64,000 nt of DNA from assembly GCA_947623225.1 (NCBI GenBank), contig CANQGO010000005.1, positions 423 through 64,422 of the forward strand, in the 5' to 3' direction. Both the position numbers and the translations under genes were made by a program. The notes under the pieces were generated by a model. The model was not told the DNA's origin and did not search any database. It saw only the letters and a program-made list of their open reading frames with translations. The stretch comes from an uncultured Clostridia bacterium. Its GTDB lineage: Bacteria > Bacillota > Clostridia > Christensenellales > CAG-314. Of this stretch, positions 9,105 to 64,000 are shown one piece after another (positions within the stretch are counted from its first letter, which is position 1; each line of letters starts with the position of its first letter).

Positions 9105-9154
9105 CCTGCGCCTTTTTATTCTCAGGCTTATTGCGACAGATTGGTGCAAAATTG

Positions 9155-9183
9155 TTGCAATTTTCGGTTTTTTGTACTATAAT
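9155..9183 (+). promoter_or_regulatory. sigma-A type promoter
   Basis: TTGCAA, a 17-nt spacer, then TATAAT (9178-9183), upstream of the AAGGAG RBS and ATG 9221. Confidence 0.6.
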
Positions 9184-9220
9184 CTATAGCGTATGTACTA
9201 TCTACTTAAGGAGTAGTGTA

Positions 9221-11374: not shown

Positions 11375-11394
11375 ATATACATATTCTCCTTTGT

Positions 11395-13757: not shown

Positions 13758-13786
13758 AGTCCAATCTCCATTCAATGTAATTTCAA

Positions 13787-13812
13787 GGGTCTCCCATAGA
13801 CAAAGAGACCCC
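13787..13812 (-). terminator. expression-platform hairpin (possible attenuator) of the riboswitch
   Basis: On the minus-strand RNA, GGGTCTC, loop TTTGTCTATG, GAGACCC, then TTGAAATT. It lies about 30 nt upstream of ATG 13757. The U-tract is weak. Confidence 0.4.
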
Positions 13813-13850
13813 TTTCCGCGCTTTTCTCGAAACGCAGACAAAATCTCAAC

Positions 13851-17471: not shown

Positions 17472-18443
17472 TTATTGTTTGTGTACCACGATCTGGGGGA
17501 AGGGAATGCCGATACCGTTCTCGTCGAACATATTCTTGACGGCGGCATTGAGTTCTCTGCCGGCGGCGAATATGTCCGCTTCCTTGCAGGAGCAGCTGAA
17601 GCGCAGCGTCACGCCGCTGGCTCCGAGGCTGGTCACGCCGTCGTAGGTCACTTCACCCACGGCGTGTTCCACTTTCAGCTTGGACAGGTGCTTGCGAATG
17701 ATCTTCTCCGTCTCGGGCAGGCGTGCGCCGTACTCCACGTCGATGAAGGTGTGGGCGTAGCTCAACTCGGTATCGTGGTTGATGACGCCGCGCAGGTCGC
17801 TGTTGTTGAATATCTTCACGTCGCCGAAGGAGCGTACCTTGGTGGTGCGGATACCTATGCCTATCACCTCGCCGTGGAAGTCGCCCACGGTGATATAGTC
17901 ACCGACATTGAATTCGTTTTCGAATACGATGAACAGTCCCGCGACTATATCCGCGATGAGGCTCTGCATACCGAGACCGACTATGAGGGTGAGCACTCCC
18001 GCGCCGGTGATGAGGGCGGTGGTGTCCACGCCGAAGGCGGACAGGACGATGATTATCAATATGAGTGCCGTCACCCAGTTGAGCAGGTTGCATATCAGGC
18101 TGGAGATGGTCAGACCCCTGTGCGTCTTGCCGAAGGACTTGCGGATGATGAGGGACGCGATGGTGACGATCAGCAGCAGCACCGTCACCGACTGGATGCA
18201 CTTGATGAGGGTGGGCACCAGCATGATGAGTTTGTCAAAAAACAGCGAATCTGTGCCGGGAGTGGCTGTCGCGGGATCGCCGTCTACCATAGTAGAGGGA
18301 TCGAGGAACCAGTTGACGGCGGGATCCGTGCTGAAGAGTGGTTCGTAAAATACGTAGCTCAGTACCGTGATGATCAGCATGACGGCGAGTATCACCAGTC
18401 GGGCGGGACTCACCGCACGCAGGCGTTTGTTTTCTTTGGACAT
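17472..18443 (-). CDS. small-conductance mechanosensitive channel (MscS family)
   Basis: N-terminal TM helices plus LIADIVAGLFIVFENEFNVGDYITVGDFHGEVIGIGIRTTKVRSFGDVKIFNNSDL. Start taken at MSKENKRL (ATG 18443). Confidence 0.85.
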   Translation of the reverse strand: MSKENKRLRAVSPARLVILAVMLIITVLSYVFYEPLFSTDPAVNWFLDPSTMVDGDPATATPGTDSLFFDKLIMLVPTLIKCIQSVTVLLLIVTIASLIIRKSFGKTHRGLTISSLICNLLNWVTALILIIIVLSAFGVDTTALITGAGVLTLIVGLGMQSLIADIVAGLFIVFENEFNVGDYITVGDFHGEVIGIGIRTTKVRSFGDVKIFNNSDLRGVINHDTELSYAHTFIDVEYGARLPETEKIIRKHLSKLKVEHAVGEVTYDGVTSLGASGVTLRFSCSCKEADIFAAGRELNAAVKNMFDENGIGIPFPQIVVHKQ

Positions 18444-18571
18444 ATGTACCTCCGTGTATGTGATGAGTCCATTATACACCCGTATGCCTTTTGAGGCAAG
18501 CGCGTAGTGCTTTTTGCGCGTGCAAGCACTTGCAAAAATGCGGCGGATATAGTAAAATCATATATATAGTT

Positions 18572-23039: not shown

Positions 23040-23205
23040 ACCTTGATTATACAGTATATATCCGCTTTTGTAAATCCCTTGCGCCCATTTGCTCCCGAGA
23101 GTGCGAGCCGTGCGACGGATTTCGGCAAATATCCGAAGGATCTTACTCAAAAGGGCGAAGTGGTGCGCATATGATATACGGATACTACCAAATGGAGGCA
23201 AAAAG

Positions 23206-24288
23206 TTGGATACGGGGACGAAGAACGGACGCAGATGGTCGAAGGTGGTGCTTCCCCTCATAGCGGTGACGGCGGCGGCTGTATTCGCGCTCATATGGGC
23301 ACCGGGTCGTCTGCCCGTCACGCCGAACGTGCAGAGCGGCGAGGAGTACGAGGGCATAGCGGAGTTGTGGAACGTGGAGAGCTTCGAGGGCGGTACAGGC
23401 AGCCGCGAGAGTTGGCTGAAGGCGCGCGCCGCGCGTTTCGAGAAGGAACACAAGGGCTTTTTCGTGCATGTGAGCACCCTGACGGCGGAGCAGGCGGAGG
23501 AAAAACTCCGACAGGGGGAGGGTTTCGATATGGTTTGCTTCTCGCGTGGCGTGGGAGAGTCGCTCGCGGACAAACTGGCGCAGGTGGAGAGCGGAGCGGA
23601 CATACGTGACAACTTTCTGGTGTCGGGGCAGATAGGGGGAGTGCAGTACGCGCTGCCGTTGTACACGGGAGTGTATTGCCTGTTTGCACGGGCGTCCATG
23701 CTGAGCGAGGACAGACTGCGCGAGGAGGCACTGACGCGGACGTACACGCGCAAGGTGGGCAAGACGGAAGTCACGTTGGCACCGCTGGTGTGCGGATTCG
23801 CGCCCTACGGCAGTCCGCTGTCCGCTCCGGCGATGAGCGGTATGAGAGGAAGCGTACAGGCGGACGAGAATATGACTCAGTACGCCGCGTACGAGGCATT
23901 CGTCGCCAACAGAACGGCGGTGACGCTGCTGGGCACCCAGCGGGATATGTTCCGACTGGGACAGCGGGAGCGTGACGGCAGACTGGAGAGTCTGGCGTTT
24001 CAGCCGCTGGGCGGATATACCGACCTGGTGCAGTATGTGGGTATTTCCGCAGAGACAGGCTACGCCGACGCCTGCGCCGCCTTCACGGACCAACTGCTGA
24101 GCGACGAAGCGCAGTCCGCGCTCGCGCAACTGTGCCTGTTTTCCGTGACAAGCAACCATATATACACGGAGGGCAGATTCGCCGACAGCGAGGCATTGCT
24201 GGGAGAGGCGTACGTGCCCAATGTATTCGGCGGCAGCGACGCGGTGGCACGCCAGCGCAGGATAGCACTGGAGACGTTGGCGGCGTGA
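23206..24288 (+). CDS. membrane-anchored extracytoplasmic protein, unknown function (solute-binding-protein-like by impression only)
   Basis: TTG 23206 lies 7 nt after GGAGG. N-terminal anchor WSKVVLPLIAVTAAAVFALIW. The gene ends 1 nt before murB. Confidence 0.5.
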   Translation: MDTGTKNGRRWSKVVLPLIAVTAAAVFALIWAPGRLPVTPNVQSGEEYEGIAELWNVESFEGGTGSRESWLKARAARFEKEHKGFFVHVSTLTAEQAEEKLRQGEGFDMVCFSRGVGESLADKLAQVESGADIRDNFLVSGQIGGVQYALPLYTGVYCLFARASMLSEDRLREEALTRTYTRKVGKTEVTLAPLVCGFAPYGSPLSAPAMSGMRGSVQADENMTQYAAYEAFVANRTAVTLLGTQRDMFRLGQRERDGRLESLAFQPLGGYTDLVQYVGISAETGYADACAAFTDQLLSDEAQSALAQLCLFSVTSNHIYTEGRFADSEALLGEAYVPNVFGGSDAVARQRRIALETLAA

Positions 24289-39004: not shown

Positions 39005-39234
39005 TTTGTTCCTTCACGGCTTTCGTTTTATATATTGTACAATATTTCCGCATTTTTTTCAACCTTTTTGCTTATAAATATTTCACAAAAGTTAAATATC
39101 CGTCTTGTTTGCGCATCTGTGCATTTTATCTCGGATCCGTCCGTGCAAAATTGCGGAAAACTGTTTACCTTTTGACGGTTTTACGCTAAAATATAAGGGA
39201 CAGTATGAAAAACGCTATGCAGAGAGGTATGGCT

Positions 39235-39912
39235 ATGTTTGATATTCTGGTGGTAGAGGACGACAAGAATACTCGCAAACTGCTCACGGCTATATTGAGC
39301 GGGGAGGGGTACAATGTCCTGCAGGCGAAGAACGGCGTAGAGGCGTTGGAGGCGATGGAGCACAATCACGTGGACCTGATGGTGCTGGACGTGATGATGC
39401 CGCAGATGGACGGCTTCACGCTCACGCAGACGCTGAGGGAGAGCGGCAGTCAGCTGCCCATGCTGATACTGTCTGCCAAGCAGAACGTAATGGATATCAA
39501 GAAGGGCTTTCTGGTGGGCATAGACGACTACCTGACCAAGCCGTTCGACCCGGATATGCTCATATTGCGCATCAAGGCATTGCTCAGGCGCAGCAAGATA
39601 GTTACGGAAAACAAACTGACTGTGGGCAATGTGACTCTGGACTACAACGCCTACACGGTGACCACGCCCGAGTGGCAGGAGCAACTGCCGCAGAAGGAGT
39701 TTTTGCTGCTGTTCAAGTTGCTCAGCTATCCCAATGTGGTATTCACGCGCATGCAGCTGATGGACGAGATATGGGGCATGGACGCGGAGAGCGACGAGCA
39801 CACGGTGAACGTGCACATAAACAGACTGCGTACGCGTTTTGCCGACACGCCGGACTTCGAGATAGTGACGGTGCGCGGCTTGGGATACAAGGCGGTGAGA
39901 CACGATGAGTAG
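39235..39912 (+). CDS. OmpR-family response regulator
   Basis: MFDILVVEDD receiver domain with DLMVLDVMMP, and winged helix TVNVHINRLRTRF...VRGLGYK. ATGs at 39205 and 39229 are alternative starts. Confidence 0.88.
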   Translation: MFDILVVEDDKNTRKLLTAILSGEGYNVLQAKNGVEALEAMEHNHVDLMVLDVMMPQMDGFTLTQTLRESGSQLPMLILSAKQNVMDIKKGFLVGIDDYLTKPFDPDMLILRIKALLRRSKIVTENKLTVGNVTLDYNAYTVTTPEWQEQLPQKEFLLLFKLLSYPNVVFTRMQLMDEIWGMDAESDEHTVNVHINRLRTRFADTPDFEIVTVRGLGYKAVRHDE

Positions 39913-40945
39913 ACGCAAAAAGAGAAATATATTCAACCGCATCACCCTCATAGTGGTGCTGTGCCTGTTCGTGCTGCTGATGGTGACCATGATAGCCACG
40001 CTGGGGCTTACCTCCCTCATAGCGCAGCATTGGATGGTGGACGAGGACAATATATTCCTGTTCGGTACCATCATCATGGCATTCAGTATCGTATTCGGCG
40101 TTGCCTTGTCCTTTGCATACTCCGCCATCATAGTGAAGGCGAGCAGACCCTACCTCGACGCTTTGCAGAAGGTGGCGGAAGGAGACTTCTCCGTGAGGAT
40201 AGAGGACCCGGTAGTATTTGCCAACTTCAATATAGCCAAGAACTTCAACTATATGGTCAGTCAACTGCAGAGCGTGGAGACGCTGCGCGAGAACTTCGTG
40301 TCCGACTTCTCTCACGAGTTCAAAACGCCCATCAGTTCCATATCCGGCTTTGCAAAACTGCTCAAGAATCCCAACCTGTCCGTCGAGGCGCGCAACGAGT
40401 ACCTGGACGCCATCATAGACGAGTCCCGTCGGCTGGTGGAGTTGTCCGAGAGCGTGCTCATGCTGAACAGGCTGGACTCCACGGAGGAGGTGGACAAGCA
40501 GCTGTACAGTCTGGACGAGCAGTTGAGGCAATGCGTGCTCATGTTCGAACAGCAATGCGATGCCAAGCATATAGAGTTGAATGTCGACTTGGAGGAGATG
40601 AAGATACTCAGCAATTACAAGTTGCTCAGTCAGGTCGTAGTCAATCTGCTGTCCAATGCCGTCAAGTTCACGGACGAAGGGGGATCCATAGACGTGAGGT
40701 GCAAGACGGTGGGGCTGAATGTGCTCATATCCGTCACCGACAGCGGCTGCGGTATGGATGAGGAGACCAAGAACAATATTTTCAACAAATTTTATCAGGG
40801 GGACAAGTCGCATACCACCGAGGGCAACGGCTTGGGACTGTGTATAGTCAAGAAGATCGTGGATATGCTGGGCGGTCAGATATTCGTGGAGAGCAAGCCT
40901 GGTGCGGGCAGTACCTTCTCCGTGCTGCTGCTCAAGGGGAATTGA
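39905..40945 (+). CDS. sensor histidine kinase (two TM helices, minimal extracellular loop)
   Basis: H-box FVSDFSHEFKTPISSI, N-box LLSNAVKFT and G-boxes DSGCGM and GNGLGL. It overlaps the response regulator gene by 8 nt. Confidence 0.88.
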   Translation: MSRRKKRNIFNRITLIVVLCLFVLLMVTMIATLGLTSLIAQHWMVDEDNIFLFGTIIMAFSIVFGVALSFAYSAIIVKASRPYLDALQKVAEGDFSVRIEDPVVFANFNIAKNFNYMVSQLQSVETLRENFVSDFSHEFKTPISSISGFAKLLKNPNLSVEARNEYLDAIIDESRRLVELSESVLMLNRLDSTEEVDKQLYSLDEQLRQCVLMFEQQCDAKHIELNVDLEEMKILSNYKLLSQVVVNLLSNAVKFTDEGGSIDVRCKTVGLNVLISVTDSGCGMDEETKNNIFNKFYQGDKSHTTEGNGLGLCIVKKIVDMLGGQIFVESKPGAGSTFSVLLLKGN

Positions 40946-51215: not shown

Positions 51216-53021
51216 ATGACACAACAGAGAAAAGTCAGACTGACATTGTCCATCATAGTGTTGGCGGCACTCCTGCTCGCCGTGGCAATGCCTTTTGCTC
51301 TGAAAACTTCTGCCGCGGACGCCGCACCTGTATTGGCGGATACGTCTGCAACAAATACGTACTACAGCGGCAATTACTACAACAATCTGAATACCAACCT
51401 GACGGGCACGGCATTCAGGACGGAATTGTACAATTTGATATCCAATCCGCATAAGAATTCTACTTATGACGGATTGAAAACGGTATACAAGACATCCGAC
51501 GCGGACCCCAACAGAAACGGCAATATATTGTGGTTCTATACCGGTACGTCCACGTCCTACAACGGAAGTATGGGCAGTTCCGCAGGGACAACGAATCGTG
51601 AACACGTATGGCCCAAAAGAGGGGGCAAAGCCTTCACTCCCATAGAATCGGAAGCAGGCAGCGACGCTCACCATCTTCGCCCGACGGATGCGACGCTGAA
51701 TAGTACTCGCGGCGAAAAAGATTTCGACGAAGTGCCTCAGACCTCTTCGAATATAGTGTCCGAAGCCGGCAAGAAAAACTACGGCTCTTCTCCGGACGGA
51801 CTTTGCTATTCTACCAGTACGTCGTTCTATCCCGCCAAAGGCTATCGCGGAGCGACGGCGCGCATTTTGTTCTATGTGCAGGTGCGCTGGGGAGACAAAA
51901 ACAGTTTGCGATTTGTAGACACGGTGGGCACCTCCGGCAAGACGCTGGGCAAGATATCCACTTTGCTCAAGTGGCACCTGGAGGAGCCGCCTACAGAGGA
52001 GGAGATACGCCGCAACGAAGTGGTATTCGGCTTACAAAATAACCGCAACCCCTTCATAGATCACCCGGAGTATGCCGAGATGATATACTGCTACGACGGT
52101 CAGACTTACAACAACGCGCTCAAGGCGGTCGTGGAGTCACACGGCGGCGGATATATGAGCGGTACGCCCGTAGTGCCGCCGACGCCGGATGAGACGCCGA
52201 CGCAGTTGACGTTGTCGGCAAGTTCGCTCAGTCTGAAAGTGGGCGAGACCTCGCAGCCGATAACGGTATCGGCATTGCCGCAGGGCGCGAGCAACAGCGT
52301 GGTATGGGGCACGAGCGACAACAGCGTCGCCACCGTCAACAACGGCGCAGTGACTGCCGTGGGCGCAGGTACTGCCACCATCACGGCGGTAAGCGTACTG
52401 GACGAGAATGTGAAGGCAAGCCTTACGGTGACGGTGACGCAGGCGGAAGCACCGCCCGTTGTCATAGAAAAGTTGGAGATCTTTCCTTCTTCGCTATCCA
52501 TGACGCAGGGAGGTACGCGGCAACTCTCGGTGCAGGTGACGCCCGAGAGGGCGAGCACCGCAGTCACCTGGAGCAGTACGCAGCCCGACGTGGCTACGGT
52601 ATCGGCAAGCGGACTGGTCACGGCGGTGAAGGAAGGGGAGACTGTGATCACCGCGACGTCGGTGGCGGATCCCAACGTGTCTGCCAGCGTCAAGGTGAAA
52701 GTAGTGTCGCAGGCGGTGAATACGGAGACGTTCCGCTCGGCGATGGCGTCATACGGCGTGGCGCAGACATTGGAAGATAAGTATAACGCGCTGCAACGGG
52801 CGATAGAAGCCTACGGCAATATGGACGAAGCCTCCAAGGCTACGGTGACGGCGGAGCATGAGCAGATGATAGAAGCCGTCGAGAAGTTCAACGGCAGCGT
52901 GGGGATATACAACAACGAGATATACAACGCTGCACAGTTTGCTTCTCAGACGACGGCGTTGAGCATATCCGCTGTACTGCTGGCGATAGTCGCCATAGTA
53001 GGCAAGGCACTGGGGAGGTGA
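51216..53021 (+). CDS. secreted endonuclease I-family nuclease fused to two Big_2 Ig-like domains, with a C-terminal TM anchor
   Basis: Signal peptide, then NREHVWPK, DAHHLRPTD, NSTRGEKDF and NRNPFIDHPE (Endonuclease_1 motifs). Two Big_2-like repeats follow (VWGTSDNSVATV..GTATITA and VTWSSTQPDVATV..GETVITA). The terminal helix is ALSISAVLLAIVAIVGKALG. Confidence 0.8.
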   Translation: MTQQRKVRLTLSIIVLAALLLAVAMPFALKTSAADAAPVLADTSATNTYYSGNYYNNLNTNLTGTAFRTELYNLISNPHKNSTYDGLKTVYKTSDADPNRNGNILWFYTGTSTSYNGSMGSSAGTTNREHVWPKRGGKAFTPIESEAGSDAHHLRPTDATLNSTRGEKDFDEVPQTSSNIVSEAGKKNYGSSPDGLCYSTSTSFYPAKGYRGATARILFYVQVRWGDKNSLRFVDTVGTSGKTLGKISTLLKWHLEEPPTEEEIRRNEVVFGLQNNRNPFIDHPEYAEMIYCYDGQTYNNALKAVVESHGGGYMSGTPVVPPTPDETPTQLTLSASSLSLKVGETSQPITVSALPQGASNSVVWGTSDNSVATVNNGAVTAVGAGTATITAVSVLDENVKASLTVTVTQAEAPPVVIEKLEIFPSSLSMTQGGTRQLSVQVTPERASTAVTWSSTQPDVATVSASGLVTAVKEGETVITATSVADPNVSASVKVKVVSQAVNTETFRSAMASYGVAQTLEDKYNALQRAIEAYGNMDEASKATVTAEHEQMIEAVEKFNGSVGIYNNEIYNAAQFASQTTALSISAVLLAIVAIVGKALGR

Positions 53022-53025
53022 CGTG

Positions 53026-53625
53026 ATGAAGAAGATATATATATTGCTTGTCGCAGTCATACTCACGCTGACGCTGGTGTGCGCGGCGGCATGCGAGTCC
53101 GAAGAACTCACGGAGCAGATCAACGAAGCACTCAAAAAAGACTACACTTCCGTCACGGTGAATACCGTCGTGAAGATGGAAAGTTACACGTTGAACGGCG
53201 TGTACAATATCCGCTATGACGGAGATTCCGCCACGGTGGAGTATACATTTGACAAATTCAACACGCTGGACCCGAACGGGGACAACAGCGACTCCCTGAT
53301 ATCCACCGTATCCGGCACGGCGTCCGTGGTGGACGGCAAGATAGTCGGAGAGGACGTCGACCTCAATGCCGGTGTGCTGGCATATACGGGGTTCAGCTTC
53401 AAAAAGAATTTTCTCAAAGTGACCAACGACTCCAGGACGGTGCTGAACGCTCAGGTGCTCAACCCGAAGGCATTCGTAGGCAACAACGACTTCGGCGGCA
53501 CGGATATGACCGTCAGCGTCATCTGCGGCGGCGGTATCTTGCAAAAACTTGCCGTGGAGTACACATCCGTACAGGGCGCGAACGTCTCCGTGACCTACCT
53601 GTTCCAAACCGACTCTGCAAATTAA
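53026..53625 (+). CDS. lipoprotein, unknown function
   Basis: Lipobox MKKIYILLVAVILTLTLVCAAAC. It directly follows the nuclease gene. Confidence 0.7.
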   Translation: MKKIYILLVAVILTLTLVCAAACESEELTEQINEALKKDYTSVTVNTVVKMESYTLNGVYNIRYDGDSATVEYTFDKFNTLDPNGDNSDSLISTVSGTASVVDGKIVGEDVDLNAGVLAYTGFSFKKNFLKVTNDSRTVLNAQVLNPKAFVGNNDFGGTDMTVSVICGGGILQKLAVEYTSVQGANVSVTYLFQTDSAN

Positions 53626-53653
53626 CTTTTGCGCCTATTATATTGTTACAGAT

Positions 53654-53686
53654 CGTCCCCGAAGGATATCGGGGACGGTTTTTTTT
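53654..53686 (+). terminator. rho-independent terminator
   Basis: CGTCCCCGA, loop AGGATA, TCGGGGACG, then GTTTTTTTT. Confidence 0.85.
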
Positions 53687-53811
53687 GTTTTTTTATATTT
53701 ATATATAATATATCTACGATTTTTCTTTGAAAATTTACCTAAAATTTACTTGACGCGGTTACAATCATCTACAAGAGTGAAATTTCAGCCCAAAACAAAA
53801 GGAAATCAACT

Positions 53812-56800
53812 ATGCCGAAATTCAAAATAATATGTTTTGTAGTAGCCGCGATCATGGCGGCGGTAGGCACGATGCTGGTATTGAAGAACCTCAATAACGA
53901 CTTCGTGCCGCCGGACAAAGTAGTCTCGACGGACATGAATACCTATCTGGACAGGACGGAGGATATGGATATATCCGACCGTACTCGTGACGCACGCGAA
54001 TTTTTGTTCGTGGCGCACAAGATACTGCTGCAGCGTCCCGCCTTCAAGGGCGTATCCAGCGGAACGTCCACTGCTATGGGCGGTATCGAGCAGAGCGTAT
54101 TGAATACTCGCGTGGTTTTGGGTGAATTCGGCAACAAGCGCGTATTTAAGGAAATGGTGACCAAGGGCATAGTCAGCAACGCTTACCAACTGTATCTGGT
54201 AGGACTGGGCGAAACGGGCAACTACATATACCGCGGATTCGACAGAGTACGCGAGATAGACAACGTGGAGTGGAGCGGACAGGCTCAGCCGCTGTCCATG
54301 CAGGCATTTTACAACAGGTTCGGTCATCGCTCGGATAAGCTGACCAGCTACATACTGAACTGGGACACCGTTACCGACGGAGAGTTCGTGGAAGAGAAGG
54401 ACGGTCTGTACACATTCCTGTACAACCTCGACACTGAGACGGCACCGGCGGATCTGCGCTACGAGATGGTGACCAACGGCAATCTGGCTGACTTCCCCAA
54501 ATTTACCAAGTGCCGCATATACGTCACTATGGACGCCGACTTCAATATCCGTTCTCTGCGCACGGACTGCGCTTACCAAGCCACTACGATGGGTATCAAC
54601 GCACCCTGTGCGGAGGATATCACCGAGGTCATAGAGGACTACGAGGGAGATCTGCCCTATACGGACTTCTTCTCGGCGTATCTCGGTCAGGTGGGCGGCA
54701 ATGACATACAGAGCGATCCCACCGCGCTGAATATGCTTATGGATATGTTCGCGCCGTATCTCGGCGGTGAAGAGCTGAGAGCGTATATGACCGTCACGAA
54801 GGAGGGCGAAGCCGTCACCGACGCGCTCATCTCCCTGTCCGGACTGGATATAAGCGACCTGTCCAAGTTGACGGTGGATATGCGCTTGGGCGAGCTGAAC
54901 GTCTGCTACAAGCACGGCGAAGGCAAGATATTGGTCAATTGGCAAGACTTCAACGGCAGCGCGACGGTGGATGGTATCATGCAACTGGTCGAGGCGTTCT
55001 CTTCGCTCGGGGAGCCGCAAGCCCTCTCGGAGAGTGCTATGCCCGAGATAGACTTGGGCGCATTGCTGGAGGGGCTGACTTTCAGTACGGAAGGCAATAT
55101 ATGCACGGTGGACTTGCCTGTATCGCTCGAGCAGCTCATCGGCGTGGATATGCAGGTGAACGCTCGCTTCACGGGAGTGCTGCAGGGCGATAAGTATGTA
55201 TTCGACCACGCGGATATAAGTATCAACGATACCGATATACACATATCTCTGCGTGAGTGGACTCCGACGGTCATAGACGGCAACGCGCCCGAGATATTGG
55301 GACTTGCCGATCTGATAGTGAACGGCAAACTTGCGCTGAGCGCGGACGTGGAACTGCCGCTGTCCGACAGGACATACCGCGTGCAGGCAAACGTATTGGC
55401 TGATCTGGGCAACGGCTCCGTCAGCGCAGACGCGATACTGGGCAACAACGGCTCCGCGCACATTGTGTATGCGGACAACATAGCGTATCTCGCCCTTGGC
55501 AATGTGAAGGTGCGTCTGGACGTAGACGACACCGATGACCTGCTGACGCTCATAGGTCAATTCGCAGGCGACGGTCTGACGGGCGGAGCATTGCCGCAAG
55601 TAGACGTTGTGGAGATACTGGCACTGCTCGGCGGCTTCCGCGCAGAGGGCGACGGCAGCAACATAACGCTGTCGCTGAGTACGGATGAGCTGACGGTCGG
55701 ACTGGATATAGTCTCCGAACTCGGCAGATGGAATGTACGCTCCGTGACGGTACGGGGCATGGGCATAGAGGCGCAACTGACGCCGTCGGACATGCAGGGT
55801 GAGGTGACTGTACCCGCAGACGGCGACGAATACGCCGACATAACCGAGATGGTAGCCCAATTCGACGGGCCCATACTGGGACTGGCTGTAGCCAACGGCT
55901 ATGCGTTGAATGCGAATGTGGATCTCCTCTCCGACGGCACGGGATACCATCTTGCGGCGCAGGCGTATATAGACGAAGAGGGCAGCGTGAGCGTGAGTGC
56001 TTCCGTAGACAACGGCAATGTCAAGTTGCTGTGTGCGGATGCGGTGTACGCAAAAGACGCGTTGTATCTGCAACTCAACGGTATCAAGGTAGCTTTGCCT
56101 ATATCGGGAAGTGACGGGGACGTGGATATGTCCGCAGCACTTGACCGCCTTGCAGCAGATGAGCAGGTACGGCAGTTGCTGGCAGACAGCGGTATAGTGA
56201 AGATAGTCGCACTTGTCAGACAGTTGGCGGAGTTCGACCCGACGACGCTATTGGACGTGGACTTTGCCGCGCTCATCACCGACTTTGGATACGCTGACGG
56301 CGTACTGTCGCTGGCGGCAGACGGCAGCGCACTCGGGCTGGAGGGCGTGAGCATAGCTTGCTCGCTGTACGTACGCGACGGCGGACTGGCACTGGATATA
56401 GACCGACTGACATTTGCGGATATGACCCTGAGCGGAGACGTAGCGGTGGCTCCGTACAACAGAACGATAGCATTGCCCGACGCGAAGGAGTACGTGACGG
56501 CATTGTATGCCGAGTTGATGGGCGCGCAGGCGTATATCACGGCGGATCTTCTGAATGACGACATATGGGCAAGTGTACATATAGGCAACGAGGATATACT
56601 GCTGCGTTACACGGCAGGCAAGGTATATTTGGTATACGGCGGAGCGCGTATAGCGATAGATACGAAAGAACTGGACACGCTGACGGAGAAGATAGAACAA
56701 CTGACAGGCACTGTCGATACGGCTATGCCGGATATGACGCAACTGCTGGCGGTATTTGCCGCATTGAGCGCGGACTTCACAGGCGAACCGAATATCTCCC

Positions 56801-59800
56801 TCGTATACGGCGATATAGACCTGAGAGTGAACTTCACCGAGCGGGACGGCGCGTTGCTGTTTGAGGAAGTGTGTGTGACATTCGCCATAGAGGGCGAGAC
56901 GTACGAGGCGCGCCTGACGCAGAGCGACAGGCAAGCGGACAAGTTGAGTACGGCGGGCGAATTCGTCAACGGCAATGTGCTTGCAGAGCAACTGATGGAT
57001 ACCGTGCTGACGCTGAAGGACGCCGAAGCGGTGCAATTGACGATAGAGAACGCTCGTCTTACGGTGGGCGGAAGCGTGTATTCGGCGGACGTGACGCTGA
57101 ACACCAACGGCGGCACGGCATTGACGCTGTCACTGCGTGACGGCACCACACGCAAGGCGTTGGTATACGCCGACATACGTATACTGGACGGCGTGGCATA
57201 TATAGACTTCAACGGTATCAGACAGGCTTTGGACCTGACCGAGATACTCCCGTCCGGTCAGACGGATATGCCCGAGGCGGCTGCCGTCATAGCCGTACTG
57301 TACGAGTTGAGAGGTATGAACGGCGTATTGGACAGCATACTGGACGCTGTGGACAGGTTGCCGCGCGACCTTGACGGTATCACATTCTCGCAGATAATAG
57401 AGCATGTGACGCAGACGCAAAACGGTATAAGCGTTCGTCTGGATCCGTCGCAATTTGCACTGGACGGCGTCACGCTGGATATAGGCTTGGGCGTTGCGCC
57501 GACGATAGGCGTGGACGGTTTCACGTTGGGCGAGGTATCGGTATCCTTCGAGGCGGCATTGGATTGCTCGACAGAGCCGGTGACGGAGCCGGAAGGCGAC
57601 TACGGCACGGTGCTGAGCGTGAGTTATGGCGAGATGAGCGGTGCCGTGATGCTGGACCTGTACGGCAAGAGCGTGTACGGTCAGCTGGATATCACGGACA
57701 AGGACACGGTGCTCTTTGAGTACGAAGGCGGCAATGTATACCTGCAATACGGCAATGTGAATGTCGTATGCGGTACCAAGGATATAGGTCTGCTGCTGGC
57801 TGCGGTGAGCAAGTTCGTCACACTGCCCGAATTGCCGCAGACGGACGGCACAGACATATTGCAGACTGTGAAAGAGGTATTTTCGCAGATGGGATATACC
57901 CGTACAGACACGGAAGAAGGCTATATGCTGACCGTGCGCTACGGCGACATGAGCGTATATGTGCGCTTCCGTTGCGACGGCGACAGAGTGAGCGCGGACA
58001 GCATAGAGATACTGCCCGACGGTACACAGACTATCGCGTTGCGCTTCGGCGAGGCGGATATAGCACGGCTGGACACGCAAGCGCGCTTCGACGATATCAC
58101 CCGTATAGTGGATACATTCGCTCAACCCGTTGCGGATATCCTGAACGCAAACAGCTATGGCGCGCACTTCGATATCTCGCTGGACGCGGGCGGCGAATAC
58201 TACGCCGAGGGCGACTTCACGCTGGATGCGCAGGGCAATATATCCGTCGCGGCACTGGTGAAGGATGGCGATATCGATATTTTGGATATAGCTCTGACGC
58301 GCATGGGCGAGTCGGTATATCTCACCGTCAACGGCATAAGCGTGAGGTTCCGTATGCAGGGTACCGAGGGCGCAGACGTGAGCGGTATAGCGCAGCTGCT
58401 GGAGGACGAACGAATACAGGCTGTGCTGAGCGAACACCCGAGTATAGCCGCGCTGATAGACCGGATACAGACCGTCGCGGACAAACTCGCGCATACGGAT
58501 ATCGCTACGATAGCCTTTGCCAAGCTCATAGACTCGTTTGAGTTCGATGACGGCACGGATACATTGACGGTGGGCGTCGACGCGAGCGACCTGTCGCTGG
58601 GCAGATTCACTCTCCGTCTGTGCAACGACGACGGCAACCTCGTGCTGTCGCTGAGCGATCTGGAATTGGCGGATATACGCCTGAGAGAGGCGGAAGTGAC
58701 GCTCATGACGAACGTTGCGGACGTGACGGTGCCGGGCGAGGCGCAGGACTACATACTCAAACTGAACATATCCGGCTTCGGCGCAAATATAGACCTCGCG
58801 GCGGATCTGTACAATATGGACATATGGGCACAGATACACTACACGCACGAGGAGATACAGGGTATCACAATAGACGAGTACGCTTCGGTACTCTTCAGTG
58901 ACAATATCCTGTATGTGGATCTGAACAATATACACCTCAAGTTCCGCACGTCGGGACTTATGGACGCCGTAACGCGTATCATGGCTCTGGCAGGAGCAAG
59001 CGGATCGGTGAATGTCGCCGATATAGACGTGAATGACATCCTGTCTCGCCTGGACTACGAGATAGTGGGCGGCAACCCGCTGTTGACATACGAGAGCAAC
59101 GGATTGACGCTGGCGGTACGCTTCGGACGCGACGAGCAAGGCAGATTGGCATTTGCCGGCGTGACGGGAGACATAGGCGGCGAGAAGATAGAGATAACTC
59201 CGCAGCAGTCTGCCGTGACGGAGCAGCCGTCTACTGAAGGAACGTATACCGACGGCAACGATATGCTGGATACGGTAAGCAACGTGCTGAATATACTGGA
59301 CGTCAAGGCATTGGCAGCTGGCACCAAGGGTATAGATACCAACTTCGACCTGTCGCTGAGCCTCGACGGCAGAGCGTACACGGCGGCACTGCGCGTGCAG
59401 TACTTCGAGGGACTGAAAGTATGGCTGACGCTGTACGACGGAAGCGCGGAAGAGGGTAAACTCATCGCCCAAGGCAGCGTAACGTTCAAGGCGGGCGTAC
59501 TGTACATAGACGTCAACGGTATCCGACAGGCTGTGGATCTGAGGAGTCAAGGCGAGCACGCGGGCGAAGGTGCGACAAGCGTACAGGGCGGCGAGAAGAA
59601 GTTCTCGCTCGATCAACTGAGCGGTGCGCTGGAGCAGTACAGACATATGCATGGCGTCATAGACGCTGTCATAGACCTGGTGCAGGGACTGCCCGAGCGT
59701 CTGCGCTCGATAGATACGGTATCCTCACTTATAGTTGGACTCACGGCGGATGACGGCAAGGTGACATTGGCACTCAACGGACCTGCTATAGGTCTCAAGC

Positions 59801-62800
59801 GCAACGTAGCCGTCACGGTGGGAGTACAGGACGGCAAAGCGACCTACTCCATAGGAGATATAGCACTGCCGAGCGTTACGCCTACGGCGAAGGCAACGTA
59901 TGCGTTGTTCGCCACGCTGTCCGGCAGTATATGCGCCACAAGCGAAGCGGTGAAGGTAGAGGGCAGCGCAGAGGACTATATCACCGACCTGTCCCTCGAC
60001 CTGACTCAGTCCGCGCCCGTCATGACGATGGCGTACGGCGAGAGCGTACAGCAGGTGTTGCACGCGGGCATACGTCTGGATCTGTATCACGGGCTCATAC
60101 ACGCGACCGTCTCCTACGGCGGCAACCAAGTGACGCTGGAGGTGGATATATCCGAAGGCATAGCCGACGGCGTCGTGTATGTATTGGTGGGCAAGGATAT
60201 CTCCTCCGGCACCAAGATGAAGTTCGACCTCGCCGATACGGACAGCCTAATGCAGGCACTGGCTCAGATGGGCATCGAGTTGCCCGAGACGAGCGGCAAC
60301 GGCGGCAGCGTCTCCGATACGGCAAGCAAATTGCTTGGCGGCATACGCTACGAGCGTGCTGTACAGGGCGGCAAGGACGTCGGCTACACGCTGGCACTGA
60401 ATATAGAAGGTATATCAGTGGGCGTGGGCTTCCGTGCCGAGTCGGACGGACTGACGCTGGACGATCTGTCCCTGTACGGCGGTAACTTCCTGCTGAGCAA
60501 GGCGTCTACCGACTACGACGTGACGGAGTTGAACGCGGCAGACAACGCGCAGGCTTACTCCTTCGACGCGGCGGAGGTGCTGGAGGCATTCGCACCCTCT
60601 ATCGGCAGTCTGCTGGCTCCCGAGGGCGGCTACACGCTGCAACTGAATGGCGTCACGCTGGGACTGCTCCGTCAGGGCAATTCCTACTACAAGGTAGACG
60701 GCTCCGTCACGATAGCGGAGGGCAATATACATATCAAATTGACCGCTCACAGCGGCTCGGACAAGTACAACTTCGCAGGCAATGCGTTGCTGAGCGACGT
60801 GGAAGTATGGCTGTATGAGGACGCGCTGTATATCGATCTGGGCGGTATCAGAGTGAGAGTGCCGATGAATAACTCGGACGAGCAGCAGTCGGATACGGAT
60901 ATAGACTCCGTGCTGAACGCGCTCAAGGGCTACAGCGACAGCATAGACGCCGTGGTGACCCTGATCGAGAATATATTAGCTACGGACTTGCACACGCTCA
61001 ACGTGACGGATATGCTGGGTTTGAAGTATGCAGACGGTACGCTCACTGCCAACGTGGACGGCAGCAGGTGGGGTATCAACGAATTCTCGCTGAACGCACA
61101 GCCGCTGGACAAGGGTATATCGATCACTCTGGGCGATCTGGAGAGTGATAACACGCTGTATCTCGGCGGTAATATCACCGTCACGGGCGACGGCAGCGTC
61201 GACAAGCCCATAGGCAATGACTGGGCGACGGATCTGGATATCACCATCGACGATCACGGCGACATGAGCAACAAAGTCCACGTCAGAGTAGACCTGACGG
61301 ACAAAAAAGTATACGCCGAGATAGAGTCTCCCTCTGCGACCGACACCGCCAGACTGTATGTCAAGTACGATATCCCGACCAATACATTGTGGGTAACCGA
61401 CAAGAATAAAGTTAACGCGTCCGTGAATATAGACAGCGTGAGCCGTCTCGTGGACGAGGTGCAGAAGATAGTCGTGCAGGTATCCGGCGACGAGAATGAG
61501 AAACTGCCCGACCTTATAGGCGGCGGCTTGGATCTCAAGGCTATCAAGGACTCTTTGGAGATCACCCACGACACCGCACGCGGCACTCTCGGCGCGTCGC
61601 TCACCGCTATGGGCTTCGGAGTGACTGTGGAGATAGCCAACGGTGCTATCACGGCAAAAGTGAATGTCGGCAGCATATTCCCCGAGACCGCTTTGCACGT
61701 GGGCAGAGCACAGGCGTCTCAGAAGGGTATGGCTGAGGACCTCGACGAGTATATCGGCAAGTACGACAAGCAGGACTCTTCCCGCAAGTTCGTCTCGCTG
61801 GATACCATACTGAACTACTGGTTCTACAAGAACGGCGAGGTGAGCGAGGATCCCGAGGACAACGGCGTCATATACGACCTTGTCAATACCAACGCCTGGA
61901 TGTTTGCCTTCGACGGCGACGTACAGGGCGACAACAGTACGGAACTCACGCTCAACGGTACCACTTACCGCATAGGTCAAGGCTCCTTCCTCTCCTTCTA
62001 CTTCGACAAGGCAGAGACCTCCTTCAGTATGGAGACGCTCATAGACGAATTCGGTCAGAAGGACAAGACGCAGGCGTACAACGATCTGTTCATCCTGCTC
62101 AACTCTCTGCAACTGCGCGCCAAGTTGAATATATACAAGGGCACTACGGACGCAAGCGGCAATATGACCTTCTCCGAGTGCATGCTGCTGGACGTGGCAT
62201 TGCTGCGCGACACGGCAAGCAAGGAAGCGGACAAGAACACTTCCCGCCTGTATGTGAGCTACGATACGAGCAGCAACTCGAGTCGTCCCGGTACCCTGCG
62301 CGCTACTCTCAGCGTGGATACCTTGAAGAACGTCATCCAACTCAAGGACGAACTGGATAAGGTGCTGGGCGGTGCCATCACCGGTATGGTCAACTCCATC
62401 ACCAAGATGATAGCCGACATGCAGCAGAACGCGGCAGAGTTGCGCATTGGCAAACTCGCTCGCCTGTTCAACGAAGTGAGCTACGGCGGCGAGGACCGCA
62501 CGGGCACCAACCTGGTACTGAGGCTCAACGGCTCCGTGCTGGGCGGCGACATAGGCGAGATCGGTCTGGACGTACAACCCTACAACAGCGCGGACGCGAG
62601 CATAGGCAACGGCTTGCAGGTCAACGCTCTGCAGTTCTCCTACGGCGATATCAGCCTGGATCTCCGCAATGTGACGGTCACGGCAAGTCCCTTCACCTCC
62701 ACAGGCGACGGCGACACCGCAGACGCTCGCAAGTATACATACGTGGATTCCCGTATAGACTCCTACCGCACGGACAACCGCGCAGGCGCAGCCACCGGCA

Positions 62801-64000
62801 GCGCGTCGGATATGACCGCCAGCGGCTATGACAGAGCCAACGACCACGGCAGCGATATGACCAACTTCATCAACCTGGACAGCCTGTACGAGTTGGCGTC
62901 CTCCGTCATCATCACCGCATCCAACTACGGTGCCAAGACGCCCGCAGGTACCACACCCGCGCGCGTAGATGAGGGCTATCGCTCCTTCAGGATAGAAGGG
63001 GATCTGACTATTAGTCTGCATTTGTTGGGTAGAGATATACAATTGAGTAATATTCATCTTACTATGTATGCGGATATAGATAAGGACGGAGAGAGTTACT
63101 TCGCTGTCAAGATCCATAGAGATGAGGATAATATCCCATTAGTGGAGGCGTTCGCAGATAAGGGAGGAGACAGTTATCTGACATTCGATACGGTCAGCAA
63201 AACATTCAGTGTGTACAGGGATTCAATTTTGAGTAGGAAAATTTGCCCGGGATGTGGATTATCCATTTACCATGTTGTTAAGGAAAAAAGGAATGGTGAC
63301 TGGCGGGCAGTTGAATATGGTTATTGCGATAATCCCGAATGTAAGGATAGGAATAGTTACAAATTGAGTGCGTGGGCGTCTGCTGATAAACTTGGTTCTG
63401 AGGCGACCGGCATGCCGGATTTCCATGATACCGGTATCACTCCCGCCGAGTTCATGAGCAACTTGATGAGCGGCACGGCAGACGCGAGATGCCCGCGTGG
63501 ATATCTGTTTGAGATGATAAATCTTGGCTCGCTCTTAGGTCAAAAAATTGAAAAAATTATAATGGATCAAATAGGTAAACAGGATAGCAAAGTATTCGGT
63601 GTGGACTATGGTGTGGAGGATATACTGGACAGCGGCGACTCGTACAACTACGGCGACGCCGTGGACAATAGCAACAAACCCGTAACCGACCACAAACAGT
63701 TCCAGGTCAAGGCAAATCTTAAACCTATATCGAGTGCGTTGGGTACGCTGGATATCAAGATACACCACAGCGGCGACTTCAAGCAGTTGATGCAGTATCA
63801 GGACGGCAAGTGGGTGTATGACGAGAGTAAGTTGGCAGAGATCAAACTGGACAGACTGTGCGGCGGATTAAATATAGTTACTTCAACCGGGTTAACGATT
63901 ATACAAATTGATTTCGACCTTACGCACACGACGCCGGGATACGGTACAGCGGCGTATTACGTACAGAACAACGCGGATATGTGGAACTTGAGTATACCGT
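53812..64000 (+). CDS. giant membrane-anchored repeat protein, 5' part only (at least 3,396 codons in the window, no stop reached), no recognised family
   Basis: ATG 53812 follows AAAAGGAAA. I translated the frame by hand to position 63999 and met no stop. Frame checkpoints were confirmed at 54001, 55000, 57001 and 60001, and codon by codon from 63001 to 63999. No fragment of this frame appears in the ORF track, which is consistent with an ORF lacking an in-window stop. The N-terminus MPKFKIICFVVAAIMAAVGTMLVLKNL is a single TM anchor. Confidence 0.85.
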   Translation, partial: MPKFKIICFVVAAIMAAVGTMLVLKNLNNDFVPPDKVVSTDMNTYLDRTEDMDISDRTRDAREFLFVAHKILLQRPAFKGVSSGTSTAMGGIEQSVLNTRVVLGEFGNKRVFKEMVTKGIVSNAYQLYLVGLGETGNYIYRGFDRVREIDNVEWSGQAQPLSMQAFYNRFGHRSDKLTSYILNWDTVTDGEFVEEKDGLYTFLYNLDTETAPADLRYEMVTNGNLADFPKFTKCRIYVTMDADFNIRSLRTDCAYQATTMGINAPCAEDITEVIEDYEGDLPYTDFFSAYLGQVGGNDIQSDPTALNMLMDMFAPYLGGEELRAYMTVTKEGEAVTDALISLSGLDISDLSKLTVDMRLGELNVCYKHGEGKILVNWQDFNGSATVDGIMQLVEAFSSLGEPQALSESAMPEIDLGALLEGLTFSTEGNICTVDLPVSLEQLIGVDMQVNARFTGVLQGDKYVFDHADISINDTDIHISLREWTPTVIDGNAPEILGLADLIVNGKLALSADVELPLSDRTYRVQANVLADLGNGSVSADAILGNNGSAHIVYADNIAYLALGNVKVRLDVDDTDDLLTLIGQFAGDGLTGGALPQVDVVEILALLGGFRAEGDGSNITLSLSTDELTVGLDIVSELGRWNVRSVTVRGMGIEAQLTPSDMQGEVTVPADGDEYADITEMVAQFDGPILGLAVANGYALNANVDLLSDGTGYHLAAQAYIDEEGSVSVSASVDNGNVKLLCADAVYAKDALYLQLNGIKVALPISGSDGDVDMSAALDRLAADEQVRQLLADSGIVKIVALVRQLAEFDPTTLLDVDFAALITDFGYADGVLSLAADGSALGLEGVSIACSLYVRDGGLALDIDRLTFADMTLSGDVAVAPYNRTIALPDAKEYVTALYAELMGAQAYITADLLNDDIWASVHIGNEDILLRYTAGKVYLVYGGARIAIDTKELDTLTEKIEQLTGTVDTAMPDMTQLLAVFAALSADFTGEPNISLVYGDIDLRVNFTERDGALLFEEVCVTFAIEGETYEARLTQSDRQADKLSTAGEFVNGNVLAEQLMDTVLTLKDAEAVQLTIENARLTVGGSVYSADVTLNTNGGTALTLSLRDGTTRKALVYADIRILDGVAYIDFNGIRQALDLTEILPSGQTDMPEAAAVIAVLYELRGMNGVLDSILDAVDRLPRDLDGITFSQIIEHVTQTQNGISVRLDPSQFALDGVTLDIGLGVAPTIGVDGFTLGEVSVSFEAALDCSTEPVTEPEGDYGTVLSVSYGEMSGAVMLDLYGKSVYGQLDITDKDTVLFEYEGGNVYLQYGNVNVVCGTKDIGLLLAAVSKFVTLPELPQTDGTDILQTVKEVFSQMGYTRTDTEEGYMLTVRYGDMSVYVRFRCDGDRVSADSIEILPDGTQTIALRFGEADIARLDTQARFDDITRIVDTFAQPVADILNANSYGAHFDISLDAGGEYYAEGDFTLDAQGNISVAALVKDGDIDILDIALTRMGESVYLTVNGISVRFRMQGTEGADVSGIAQLLEDERIQAVLSEHPSIAALIDRIQTVADKLAHTDIATIAFAKLIDSFEFDDGTDTLTVGVDASDLSLGRFTLRLCNDDGNLVLSLSDLELADIRLREAEVTLMTNVADVTVPGEAQDYILKLNISGFGANIDLAADLYNMDIWAQIHYTHEEIQGITIDEYASVLFSDNILYVDLNNIHLKFRTSGLMDAVTRIMALAGASGSVNVADIDVNDILSRLDYEIVGGNPLLTYESNGLTLAVRFGRDEQGRLAFAGVTGDIGGEKIEITPQQSAVTEQPSTEGTYTDGNDMLDTVSNVLNILDVKALAAGTKGIDTNFDLSLSLDGRAYTAALRVQYFEGLKVWLTLYDGSAEEGKLIAQGSVTFKAGVLYIDVNGIRQAVDLRSQGEHAGEGATSVQGGEKKFSLDQLSGALEQYRHMHGVIDAVIDLVQGLPERLRSIDTVSSLIVGLTADDGKVTLALNGPAIGLKRNVAVTVGVQDGKATYSIGDIALPSVTPTAKATYALFATLSGSICATSEAVKVEGSAEDYITDLSLDLTQSAPVMTMAYGESVQQVLHAGIRLDLYHGLIHATVSYGGNQVTLEVDISEGIADGVVYVLVGKDISSGTKMKFDLADTDSLMQALAQMGIELPETSGNGGSVSDTASKLLGGIRYERAVQGGKDVGYTLALNIEGISVGVGFRAESDGLTLDDLSLYGGNFLLSKASTDYDVTELNAADNAQAYSFDAAEVLEAFAPSIGSLLAPEGGYTLQLNGVTLGLLRQGNSYYKVDGSVTIAEGNIHIKLTAHSGSDKYNFAGNALLSDVEVWLYEDALYIDLGGIRVRVPMNNSDEQQSDTDIDSVLNALKGYSDSIDAVVTLIENILATDLHTLNVTDMLGLKYADGTLTANVDGSRWGINEFSLNAQPLDKGISITLGDLESDNTLYLGGNITVTGDGSVDKPIGNDWATDLDITIDDHGDMSNKVHVRVDLTDKKVYAEIESPSATDTARLYVKYDIPTNTLWVTDKNKVNASVNIDSVSRLVDEVQKIVVQVSGDENEKLPDLIGGGLDLKAIKDSLEITHDTARGTLGASLTAMGFGVTVEIANGAITAKVNVGSIFPETALHVGRAQASQKGMAEDLDEYIGKYDKQDSSRKFVSLDTILNYWFYKNGEVSEDPEDNGVIYDLVNTNAWMFAFDGDVQGDNSTELTLNGTTYRIGQGSFLSFYFDKAETSFSMETLIDEFGQKDKTQAYNDLFILLNSLQLRAKLNIYKGTTDASGNMTFSECMLLDVALLRDTASKEADKNTSRLYVSYDTSSNSSRPGTLRATLSVDTLKNVIQLKDELDKVLGGAITGMVNSITKMIADMQQNAAELRIGKLARLFNEVSYGGEDRTGTNLVLRLNGSVLGGDIGEIGLDVQPYNSADASIGNGLQVNALQFSYGDISLDLRNVTVTASPFTSTGDGDTADARKYTYVDSRIDSYRTDNRAGAATGSASDMTASGYDRANDHGSDMTNFINLDSLYELASSVIITASNYGAKTPAGTTPARVDEGYRSFRIEGDLTISLHLLGRDIQLSNIHLTMYADIDKDGESYFAVKIHRDEDNIPLVEAFADKGGDSYLTFDTVSKTFSVYRDSILSRKICPGCGLSIYHVVKEKRNGDWRAVEYGYCDNPECKDRNSYKLSAWASADKLGSEATGMPDFHDTGITPAEFMSNLMSGTADARCPRGYLFEMINLGSLLGQKIEKIIMDQIGKQDSKVFGVDYGVEDILDSGDSYNYGDAVDNSNKPVTDHKQFQVKANLKPISSALGTLDIKIHHSGDFKQLMQYQDGKWVYDESKLAEIKLDRLCGGLNIVTSTGLTIIQIDFDLTHTTPGYGTAAYYVQNNADMWNLSIP
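54915..61700 (+). repeat. degenerate in-frame tandem protein repeats inside the giant ORF (sub-unit about 190 aa, unit about 380 aa, super-unit about 755 aa)
   Basis: A recurring strand motif, x-Y-[IL]-x-[LFV]-N/G-G-I-x-x-x, appears at 55480, 56059, 56620, 57193, 57733, 58312, 58906, 59497 and 60823. NGIRQA(L/V)DL occurs at 57193 and 59497. ADL(L/Y)N.DIWA..H occurs at 56542 and 58801, 2,259 nt apart. Confidence 0.7.
63244..63342 (+). other. Cys4 zinc-ribbon-like motif encoded inside the giant ORF
   Basis: The sequence CPGC-GLSIYHVVKEKRNGDWRAVEYGY-CDNPEC gives the spacing CxxC-x23-Cx4C. It lies inside the low-GC patch. Confidence 0.45.

Follow-up and report, generated by a model that had tools for sequence, protein, structure and literature searches.

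Hierarchical, deeply diverged tandem repeats in a giant, predicted membrane-anchored protein of uncultured Clostridia

The giant gene and its repeat array

We analysed a stretch of 64,000 nucleotides (nt) from an uncultured Clostridia bacterium (contig CANQGO010000005.1, positions 423 to 64,422, forward strand), hereafter the window, which carries near its end a gene for a giant protein of 3,412 amino acids (aa). The gene and the parts of its product are as follows, where the units and blocks are the repeats described below.

53812..63999, + strand: giant gene (3,412 aa), a single open frame whose last 16 codons and stop codon lie past the window end
53827..53895, + strand: transmembrane helix or signal-anchor (aa 6-28), the sole hydrophobic segment of the protein
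53932..54846, + strand: membrane-proximal N-domain (aa 41-345), the best-conserved part of the protein
54844..55815, + strand: units 1-2 (aa 345-499, 500-668), matched by the unit hidden Markov model (HMM) at aa 345-482 (E 5e-15) and 500-669 (E 5e-42)
55816..58065, + strand: units 3-6 (aa 669-889, 890-1039, 1040-1262, 1263-1418), blocks X1 and Y1, the first copy of a duplicated four-unit segment
58066..60537, + strand: units 7-10 (aa 1419-1641, 1642-1803, 1804-2042, 2043-2242), blocks X2 and Y2, the second four-unit copy
60538..62688, + strand: units 11-13 (aa 2243-2466, 2467-2651, 2652-2959), terminal block Z
62689..63999, + strand: C-terminal module (aa 2960-3412), kept across the family, also in members without the N-domain
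63244..63342, + strand: cysteine cluster CPGC...CDNPEC (aa 3145-3177), zinc-ribbon-like, inside a variable insertion of the C-terminal module

The frame of the giant gene is open from 53743, and the ATG at 53812, with AAGGAA 8 nt upstream, is the most plausible start. An exhaustive HMMER search found a complete 3,412-aa database protein (P0013) that is identical to the window translation; the open reading frame (ORF) in the window therefore lacks just 16 codons. The product is a very acidic protein of 368 kDa (isoelectric point 4.3) with few cysteines. Kyte-Doolittle windows of 19 residues with values >1.6 are confined to aa 1-28, and no LPXTG-like motif occurs anywhere in the protein, the C-terminus of which reads ...NNCGINGQIEKQA. 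The single hydrophobic segment at aa 6-28 and the lack of LPXTG thus point to an anchor in the cytoplasmic membrane at the N-terminus, as had been proposed, with ~3,380 residues on the extracellular side.

The original prediction for this locus was a series of hierarchical, highly diverged repeats at 54915-61700, marked by a short recurring motif. All the motifs listed there are present at their exact nucleotide coordinates and in one open frame, among them IAYLALGNVKVRLD at 55480 within the segment of units 1-2; the list missed one copy, which lies near aa 2143 and is the unit 10 hairpin. When 150-aa chunks were searched against the remaining protein by BLASTP, matches were found at offsets of ~190, ~375 and 752-768 aa, the strongest with E-values of 1e-12 to 1e-10 and 29-32% identity. 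Half of the chunks (11 of 22) reached at least 30 bits, whereas none did so in 10 composition-preserving local shuffles (maximum 25.8 bits). Z-scores between units are highest for units four apart (26 for units 3/7, 23.5 for 5/9, 17 for 7/11, 10.7 for 6/10 and 10 for 4/8), lower for units two apart (13 for 3/5 and 12.7 for 4/6) and lowest for neighbours (9 for 2/3 and 5.5 for 3/4), so that similarity falls from a spacing of four units (~755 aa) to two (~380 aa) and one (~190 aa). Moreover, unit 11 is akin to units 3 and 7 (Z 16-17). The internal repeats of the giant protein are real, and they form 13 very diverged tandem modules; self-BLASTP, the blank shuffled controls and the unit Z-scores all uphold the predicted hierarchy.

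The 13 units span aa 345-2959 (nt 54844-62688), slightly more than the predicted extent, which does lie within the array. Twelve of them are found by the unit HMM (E 5e-8 to 5e-42), and unit 13 is divergent, with an insertion and a length of ~310 aa. Long units (~220-240 aa, with long internal helices) alternate with short units (~150-200 aa), which explains the 380-aa period, and short proline-containing connectors (IxxPxxxDY) join the units. At the DNA level, the stretches at 57193 and 59497 are identical at 34 of 39 nt (87%, close to the ~85% counted earlier by eye) and at 82% of sites over 49 nt; beyond this stretch, no DNA-level repeat was found in the array.

The ratio of nonsynonymous to synonymous substitution rates (dN/dS) of the giant gene is 0.12-0.35 against its closest complete ortholog (locus L005), with dS saturated. 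In fact, dS is >1.5 even for the closest orthologs, and because synonymous sites are saturated, dN/dS between repeat units is not meaningful. Identity to the L005 ortholog is 75% in the N-domain, 36-46% in the repeats and 43% in the C-terminal module. These data also bear on the explanation that the recurrence is a compositional coincidence or a non-coding artefact, which could appeal to the shortness of the listed motifs and to the fact that the repeats are not visible in DNA. However, it is refuted by the contrast between the real and the shuffled chunks, by profile E-values down to 1e-100, by 287 related clusters in public data and by dN/dS <1 among orthologs, and we give it practically no credence.

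The N-domain, which has the motif (D/N)x(L/I)T(G/S)YILN, is present in 120 of the 158 family proteins examined, and sequence and profile searches with it found no match in Pfam or the PDB. In hhalign comparisons, neither the N-domain nor the lipoprotein encoded upstream (see below) has a detectable relation to the repeat unit. The C-terminal module was found by Jackhmmer in 78 of the 158 family proteins and aligns at the C-terminal end of all close homologs; it has no match in Pfam or the PDB either, and a homolog search started from it alone returned a single protein. Its cysteine-cluster insertion is missing from two family proteins (P0001 and P0012) and has grown to many CxxC motifs in two others (P0024 and P0026). 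A zinc-ribbon-like cysteine cluster is unusual for an extracellular protein.

Growth of the array, its family and its neighbourhood

To follow the array through its relatives, an iterated profile of the 380-aa block was used. The relatives carry 1, 2, 3 or 5 full blocks, and the corresponding proteins have ~1,620 aa, ~2,000 aa, 2,400-2,670 aa and 3,100-3,400 aa, respectively. Three block types can be told apart, and the giant protein has the order XYXYZ. Identity between its block 1 and block 1 of the relatives P0015 and P0012 is 39-40%, as against 27% between its own blocks 1 and 3; the other four blocks, 2 to 5, show the same pattern of positional orthology, and block Z is orthologous to the final block of every relative. 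Because the blocks are closer to those at the same position in relatives than to their own copies, the 2.26-kb XY duplication is old and positionally conserved. Judging from these block sequences, the array evidently grew stepwise, from a unit to a two-unit block (X, Y and Z) and then, by duplication of the XY pair, to XYXYZ. The earlier idea of growth by a duplication of ~2.3 kb followed by deep divergence is borne out by the size of the duplicated segment (~2.26 kb, that is, two 380-aa blocks or four units) and by the 1/2/3/5-block series. This series, together with the positional orthology, makes the array a clean case of hierarchical repeat growth that was apparently followed by long-term conservation of length.

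Unit number in species-representative genomes is 7, 9, 12 or at least 15 and follows relatedness. Across the family it ranges from 1 to 19 per protein and correlates with protein length (r = 0.89, ~245 aa per unit). One close relative, from a rabbit-gut metagenome-assembled genome (MAG; L007:9881-19564), bears at least 15 units in a protein of at least 3,228 aa, its gene being cut off at the contig end; longer versions than the window protein thus exist among its near relatives.

The extent of the family was explored by searching the block profile against 1.84 billion representatives, with clusters defined at 50% identity. We found 287 clusters at E <= 1e-3, with 700-950 copies of the unit, and 187 of the clusters are at E <= 1e-10. 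Among the best 150 of the 287 matches, the shortest have ~200 aa and are evidently fragments, and the longest has 6,215 aa. An N-terminal transmembrane segment is found in 136 of 145 full-length family representatives and a C-terminal LPXTG in just 1 of the 145. In Pfam and NCBIfam searches with the giant protein and with close and distant homologs, no model covers the repeat family; Flg_new (Listeria-Bacteroides) repeats were detected after the C-terminal module, in distant members only. The sole database names found read "hypothetical protein [Clostridiales bacterium]". This is a sizeable protein family without prior description, probably of giant envelope proteins, in uncultured gut Clostridia that include Christensenellaceae-related lineages, which are of interest for host health.

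With an 8-sequence alignment of the N-domain as the query (a 24-sequence version was too diverse), 32 related loci were located in species-representative genomes. Nearly all are in MAGs of uncultured gut Clostridia, Christensenellaceae or Oscillospiraceae, and the host animals are rabbit, mouse, chicken and human. Two family loci, L020 and L025, are titled as MAGs of "Corallococcus sp.", a myxobacterium, whereas every other match is from Clostridia; this probably reflects a mislabelled bin.

Immediately upstream of the giant gene, the window carries the following features.

51216..53021, + strand: membrane-tethered Endonuclease I, with a hydrophobic tail at its C-terminus and two Big_2 domains (Pfam Endonuclease_1 2.8e-38, Big_2 2.4e-24)
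53023..53625, + strand: lipoprotein of ~200 aa with the lipobox LVCAAAC, no Pfam match
53650..53691, + strand: intrinsic terminator separating the lipoprotein gene from the giant gene (13-bp stem with 7 G-C pairs, 6-nt loop, T-run)

The Endonuclease I gene overlaps the lipoprotein gene by its stop codon. The lipoprotein gene lies directly upstream of the giant gene in all 16 related loci with enough flank that have at least 39% N-domain identity, and in none of 16 more distant loci; the same holds for the nuclease-lipoprotein pair as a whole, and the order nuclease-lipoprotein-giant is seen in L001, L003-L004, L006-L015, L018 and L019. An AT-rich stretch lies 3' of the terminator. This stretch and the strength of the terminator suggest that, although gene order is conserved, the giant gene is probably transcribed from a promoter of its own. 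Since the terminator separates them and the order is lost in distant relatives, the upstream nuclease-lipoprotein pair is better regarded as a case of synteny than as part of an operon, and a functional tie of the nuclease to the giant gene is unsupported beyond that synteny.

The remaining window is an ordinary Firmicute chromosome, with genes for WhiA, MurB, DnaE, ProRS, ApbE and transporters. Seven sizeable ORFs are without a Pfam match at E <= 1e-4 (8274-9104, 9131-10693, 10784-11932 on the - strand, 11940-13841 on the - strand, 17475-18494, 23089-24288 and 39181-40131 on the - strand), and some of them may be shadow ORFs on the wrong strand. The first ORF (1-4026; 1,341 aa), truncated at the window start, matches AcrB/RND transporters in its C-terminal half and, weakly, MFS upstream of that half; its listing may merge two genes, or its N-terminal part may be something else.

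Fold of the unit

Two structures were predicted with AlphaFold2. The first model, of one 377-aa block cut in another phase (19-sequence alignment), has a mean predicted local distance difference test score (pLDDT) of 76.9 and a predicted template modelling score (pTM) of 0.44, with dips in confidence at two connectors and a pLDDT of 82-93 over unit 4. The second, of unit 5 cut from connector to connector (aa 1040-1262, 21 sequences), is a compact domain with pLDDT 80.7 and pTM 0.73, although part of the gain in pTM from 0.44 to 0.73 may come from the smaller model size alone. DSSP assigns to the unit 5 model a helix at residues 15-30, six strands at 35-102, helices at 116-126, 132-148 and 153-156, and five strands at 157-213. 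The unit is thus modelled as 11 antiparallel strands plus helices, and unit 4 has the same pattern in the first model. The low pTM and the connector dips of the 377-aa model fit discrete domains better than a single rigid sheet.

The models also place the elements that had first drawn attention to the repeats. A conserved hairpin, (V/I)Y(L/I)xxxG(I/V)(K/R), closes the six-strand meander, and the recurring beta-strand motif corresponds to this final hairpin of the six-strand half in the model. The helical segment taken for a linker after every second copy turns out to lie within the unit, between the six-strand and the five-strand halves. Such internal helices occur in all units and are longer in alternate units.

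A Foldseek search of the unit against the PDB returned LolB, LprF, LolA, SAOUHSC_02783 of S. aureus, Csa1A/B, RseB and an ependymin-like protein, with probabilities of 0.92-1.0. The top 10 matches of the unit are LolB (3wjt, 1iwm, 3wjv, 8cm1, 9tpm and 9rlg_L), LprF (4qa8), SAOUHSC_02783 (4egd), a LolA-LolB complex (8orn_B) and LolA (9azz), at probability 0.99-1.0 and E 1e-4 to 3e-3, with template modelling scores (TM-scores) of 0.27-0.39 and root-mean-square deviations of 8-11 A. The two-unit model matches RseB/MucB. Taking both models together, the top matches at probability 0.97-1.0 are LolB, LprF, LolA, RseB/MucB, SAOUHSC_02783 and Csa1, with modest TM-scores of about 0.3-0.44. No VPS13, ATG2, TamB, AsmA, Lpt or Ig-like protein is among the matches listed. 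Matches to sliding clamps were rejected (probability ~0.1-0.8, TM-score ~0.1). A Foldseek search against viral structures gave nothing significant, and a phage origin is thus unsupported.

Sequence comparison is silent on the fold. Pfam and NCBIfam searches found no match for the giant protein or for 21 single units, families of the LolA-fold clan (LolA, LolB, MucB_RseB, LppX_LprAFG, DUF4367 and others) are not matched by the 21 individual units even at E <= 10, and sequence and profile searches of the PDB were negative for the whole protein, the block, the N-domain and the unit alike. Taken together, these results suggest that the unit is probably a LolA/LolB-like open beta-barrel, a fold assigned to the modules by modelling or inference; with TM-scores of ~0.3-0.44 the assignment is probable, not proven.

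The models speak against the repeating beta-groove and the Ig-like string that the original prediction had raised as possibilities, although its comparison with bridge proteins, made in logic only, may still hold for function. A beta-groove (beta-taco) protein, truly related to VPS13 or AsmA, would share with the giant protein the N-terminal transmembrane anchor and the long beta-rich body with periodic helices. However, Pfam shows no match to Chorein_N, AsmA or DUF490, no such structure is among the matches listed by Foldseek, and the unit is a compact domain of six plus five strands with internal helices (pTM 0.73), not the element of five strands and a crossing loop of which a continuous sheet is made. 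Membership of that class is largely refuted by these three lines of evidence, and we consider it very improbable; the structural matches are of the LolA class instead. A known carrier fold is apparently reused here as a tandem array. Literature searches for tandem LolA-like arrays, or for comparable giant proteins in Firmicutes, gave no relevant result and no description of such an arrangement.

Possible functions and comparison with known systems

The function that we consider most likely, although with confidence that is evenly divided, is that of an extracellular stalk of tunable length. The 13-unit array would act as beads on a string whose length is set by unit number (1-19 in the family); it would cross the wall and keep the C-terminal module at a set distance from the membrane, and in distant relatives it would also carry the added Flg_new surface repeats. 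From the known size of LolA, the reach of such a stalk is perhaps tens of nanometres (a rough figure), and the LolA-like pockets may also bind hydrophobic ligands. A stalk is favoured by several observations: in the models, the units are separate compact domains whose connectors have low confidence; unit number varies stepwise between lineages; the repeats have diverged faster than the N-domain (36-46% as against 75% identity to the ortholog); distant members carry surface repeats; and no outer membrane is known in the hosts (Christensenella minuta, for example, is reported to lack LpxABCD, LptA, OmpH and BamA, PMC11448272).

Several points weigh against it. The best-conserved part of the protein adjoins the membrane and not the tip, which fits a membrane-linked activity at least as well. 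To our knowledge, LolA-like domains do not serve as a building block of stalks, and no adhesive or wall-binding domain was recognised in the giant protein with Pfam and NCBIfam. The fold assignment on which the argument draws is uncertain and at best probable, given the low TM-scores and the shallow alignments of 19-21 sequences. Furthermore, the stalk role is one that we infer from sequence and models, and the database names are all "hypothetical protein".

The main rival is a relay or bridge for hydrophobic cargo, in which a chain of LolA/LolB-like units would move lipids, glycolipids or the acyl chains of lipoproteins away from the membrane and across the envelope. Cargo could be handed from unit to unit in bucket-brigade fashion or could travel along a continuous groove, in analogy, with another fold, to LptC-LptA-LptD, AsmA/TamB/YhdP and the eukaryotic bridge-like lipid transfer proteins. 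Almost all members of the matched fold class (LolA, LolB, LprF/LppX, RseB, ependymin-like) bind hydrophobic ligands, and the layout resembles that of AsmA-like proteins, running from a transmembrane anchor over a conserved proximal domain and a variable number of carrier-like units to a conserved C-terminal module. Unit number and order are also positionally conserved across species. Moreover, in Christensenella minuta, the one cultured member of the Christensenellaceae that was checked, a Gram-negative-type wall has been reported together with the lack of LpxABCD, LptA, OmpH and BamA (PMC11448272), and a wall of that type without Lpx, Lpt or BamA genes would suit such a relay.

However, a second membrane is not known in the hosts, and neither Lpt nor AsmA, TamB or VPS13 is among the matches listed by Foldseek. 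The units model as separate compact domains joined by low-confidence connectors, and with internal helices at the position of the LolA lid or plug, their pockets may be closed. No other part of the protein evolves as fast as the repeats, and distant relatives terminate in Flg_new repeats and not in a membrane-insertion domain. We therefore regard a relay as unlikely, though as a rival to be taken seriously. If the units do carry cargo, the family might represent a third independent design for hydrophobic transport over the bacterial envelope, beside the Lpt jellyroll chain and the AsmA/VPS13 beta-groove, a proposal that we hold to be rather doubtful. One anchored polypeptide would then string together up to 19 LolA/LolB-like carrier domains, in Clostridia that lost the lipopolysaccharide (LPS) outer membrane and some of which, such as Christensenellaceae, have an envelope that is atypical and multilayered; loading of cargo at the membrane would fall to the N-domain, and unit number would match envelope thickness. 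If it is true that the units bind lipid, envelope lipid traffic in monoderm or atypical Firmicutes would become directly testable, and a new transport mechanism would be possible.

Unit number may also tune avidity rather than reach, if the protein is a multivalent adhesin or matrix protein whose units bind ligands on host, dietary or bacterial surfaces. The gut habitat, the extracellular and very acidic nature of the protein, the range from 1 to 19 units between species, the fast divergence of the repeats and the Flg_new repeats of distant relatives would all fit. Yet typical adhesins have homogenised or recently expanded repeats, whereas those of the giant protein diverged long ago and are orthologous by position, and the protein has neither a sortase signal nor an adhesive domain known to Pfam or NCBIfam. 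An adhesin seems improbable to us.

Among known systems, the LolA/LolB/LppX-LprG-LprF/RseB-MucB superfamily, open beta-barrels that carry lipids and lipoproteins, resembles the predicted unit with its ~180-220 aa, 11 antiparallel strands and 2-3 helices. There is no sequence-level link between its members and the units of the giant protein in Pfam, NCBIfam or PDB profiles, and its members are single-domain, or two-domain in the case of RseB, whereas the giant protein fuses 13 units in one membrane-anchored chain.

The AsmA-like proteins (TamB, YhdP and YdbH), VPS13 and ATG2 share with the giant protein an N-terminal anchor, giant size and a conserved domain by the anchor, as well as length variation by addition of modules, a beta-rich body and a fold class tied to hydrophobic cargo. 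They differ from it in that AsmA-like proteins and VPS13 form a continuous beta-taco, whereas the giant protein is predicted to consist of discrete LolA-like barrels, with no match to them in sequence or among the structural matches listed; its hosts have no known outer membrane. The Lpt bridge (LptC-LptA(n)-LptD N-terminal domain) shares the concept of an anchored chain of small beta domains with hydrophobic grooves. Its domains, however, are beta-jellyrolls (OstA-like) on separate oligomerising polypeptides, and none is among the structural matches listed for the unit of the giant protein; as regards the hosts, C. minuta is without LPS genes (PMC11448272).

Giant stalk and surface proteins of Gram-positive bacteria, among them Ebh, SasG/Aap and the Rib-domain proteins, resemble the giant protein in their extracellular tandem arrays with lineage-variable copy number, and the giant protein, like them, is acidic and probably projects through or past the wall. 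The array matches no known stalk or adhesive repeat family (Ig-like, Rib, G5-E, FIVAR and others) in Pfam or NCBIfam. Moreover, these Gram-positive proteins carry a signal peptide that is cleaved off and an LPXTG anchor at the C-terminus, whereas the giant protein has an N-terminal transmembrane segment and no LPXTG. Their repeats are Ig-like, G5-E, Rib or helical-bundle domains and often near-identical in DNA; those of the giant protein, in contrast, are 15-30% identical to one another and positionally orthologous between species.

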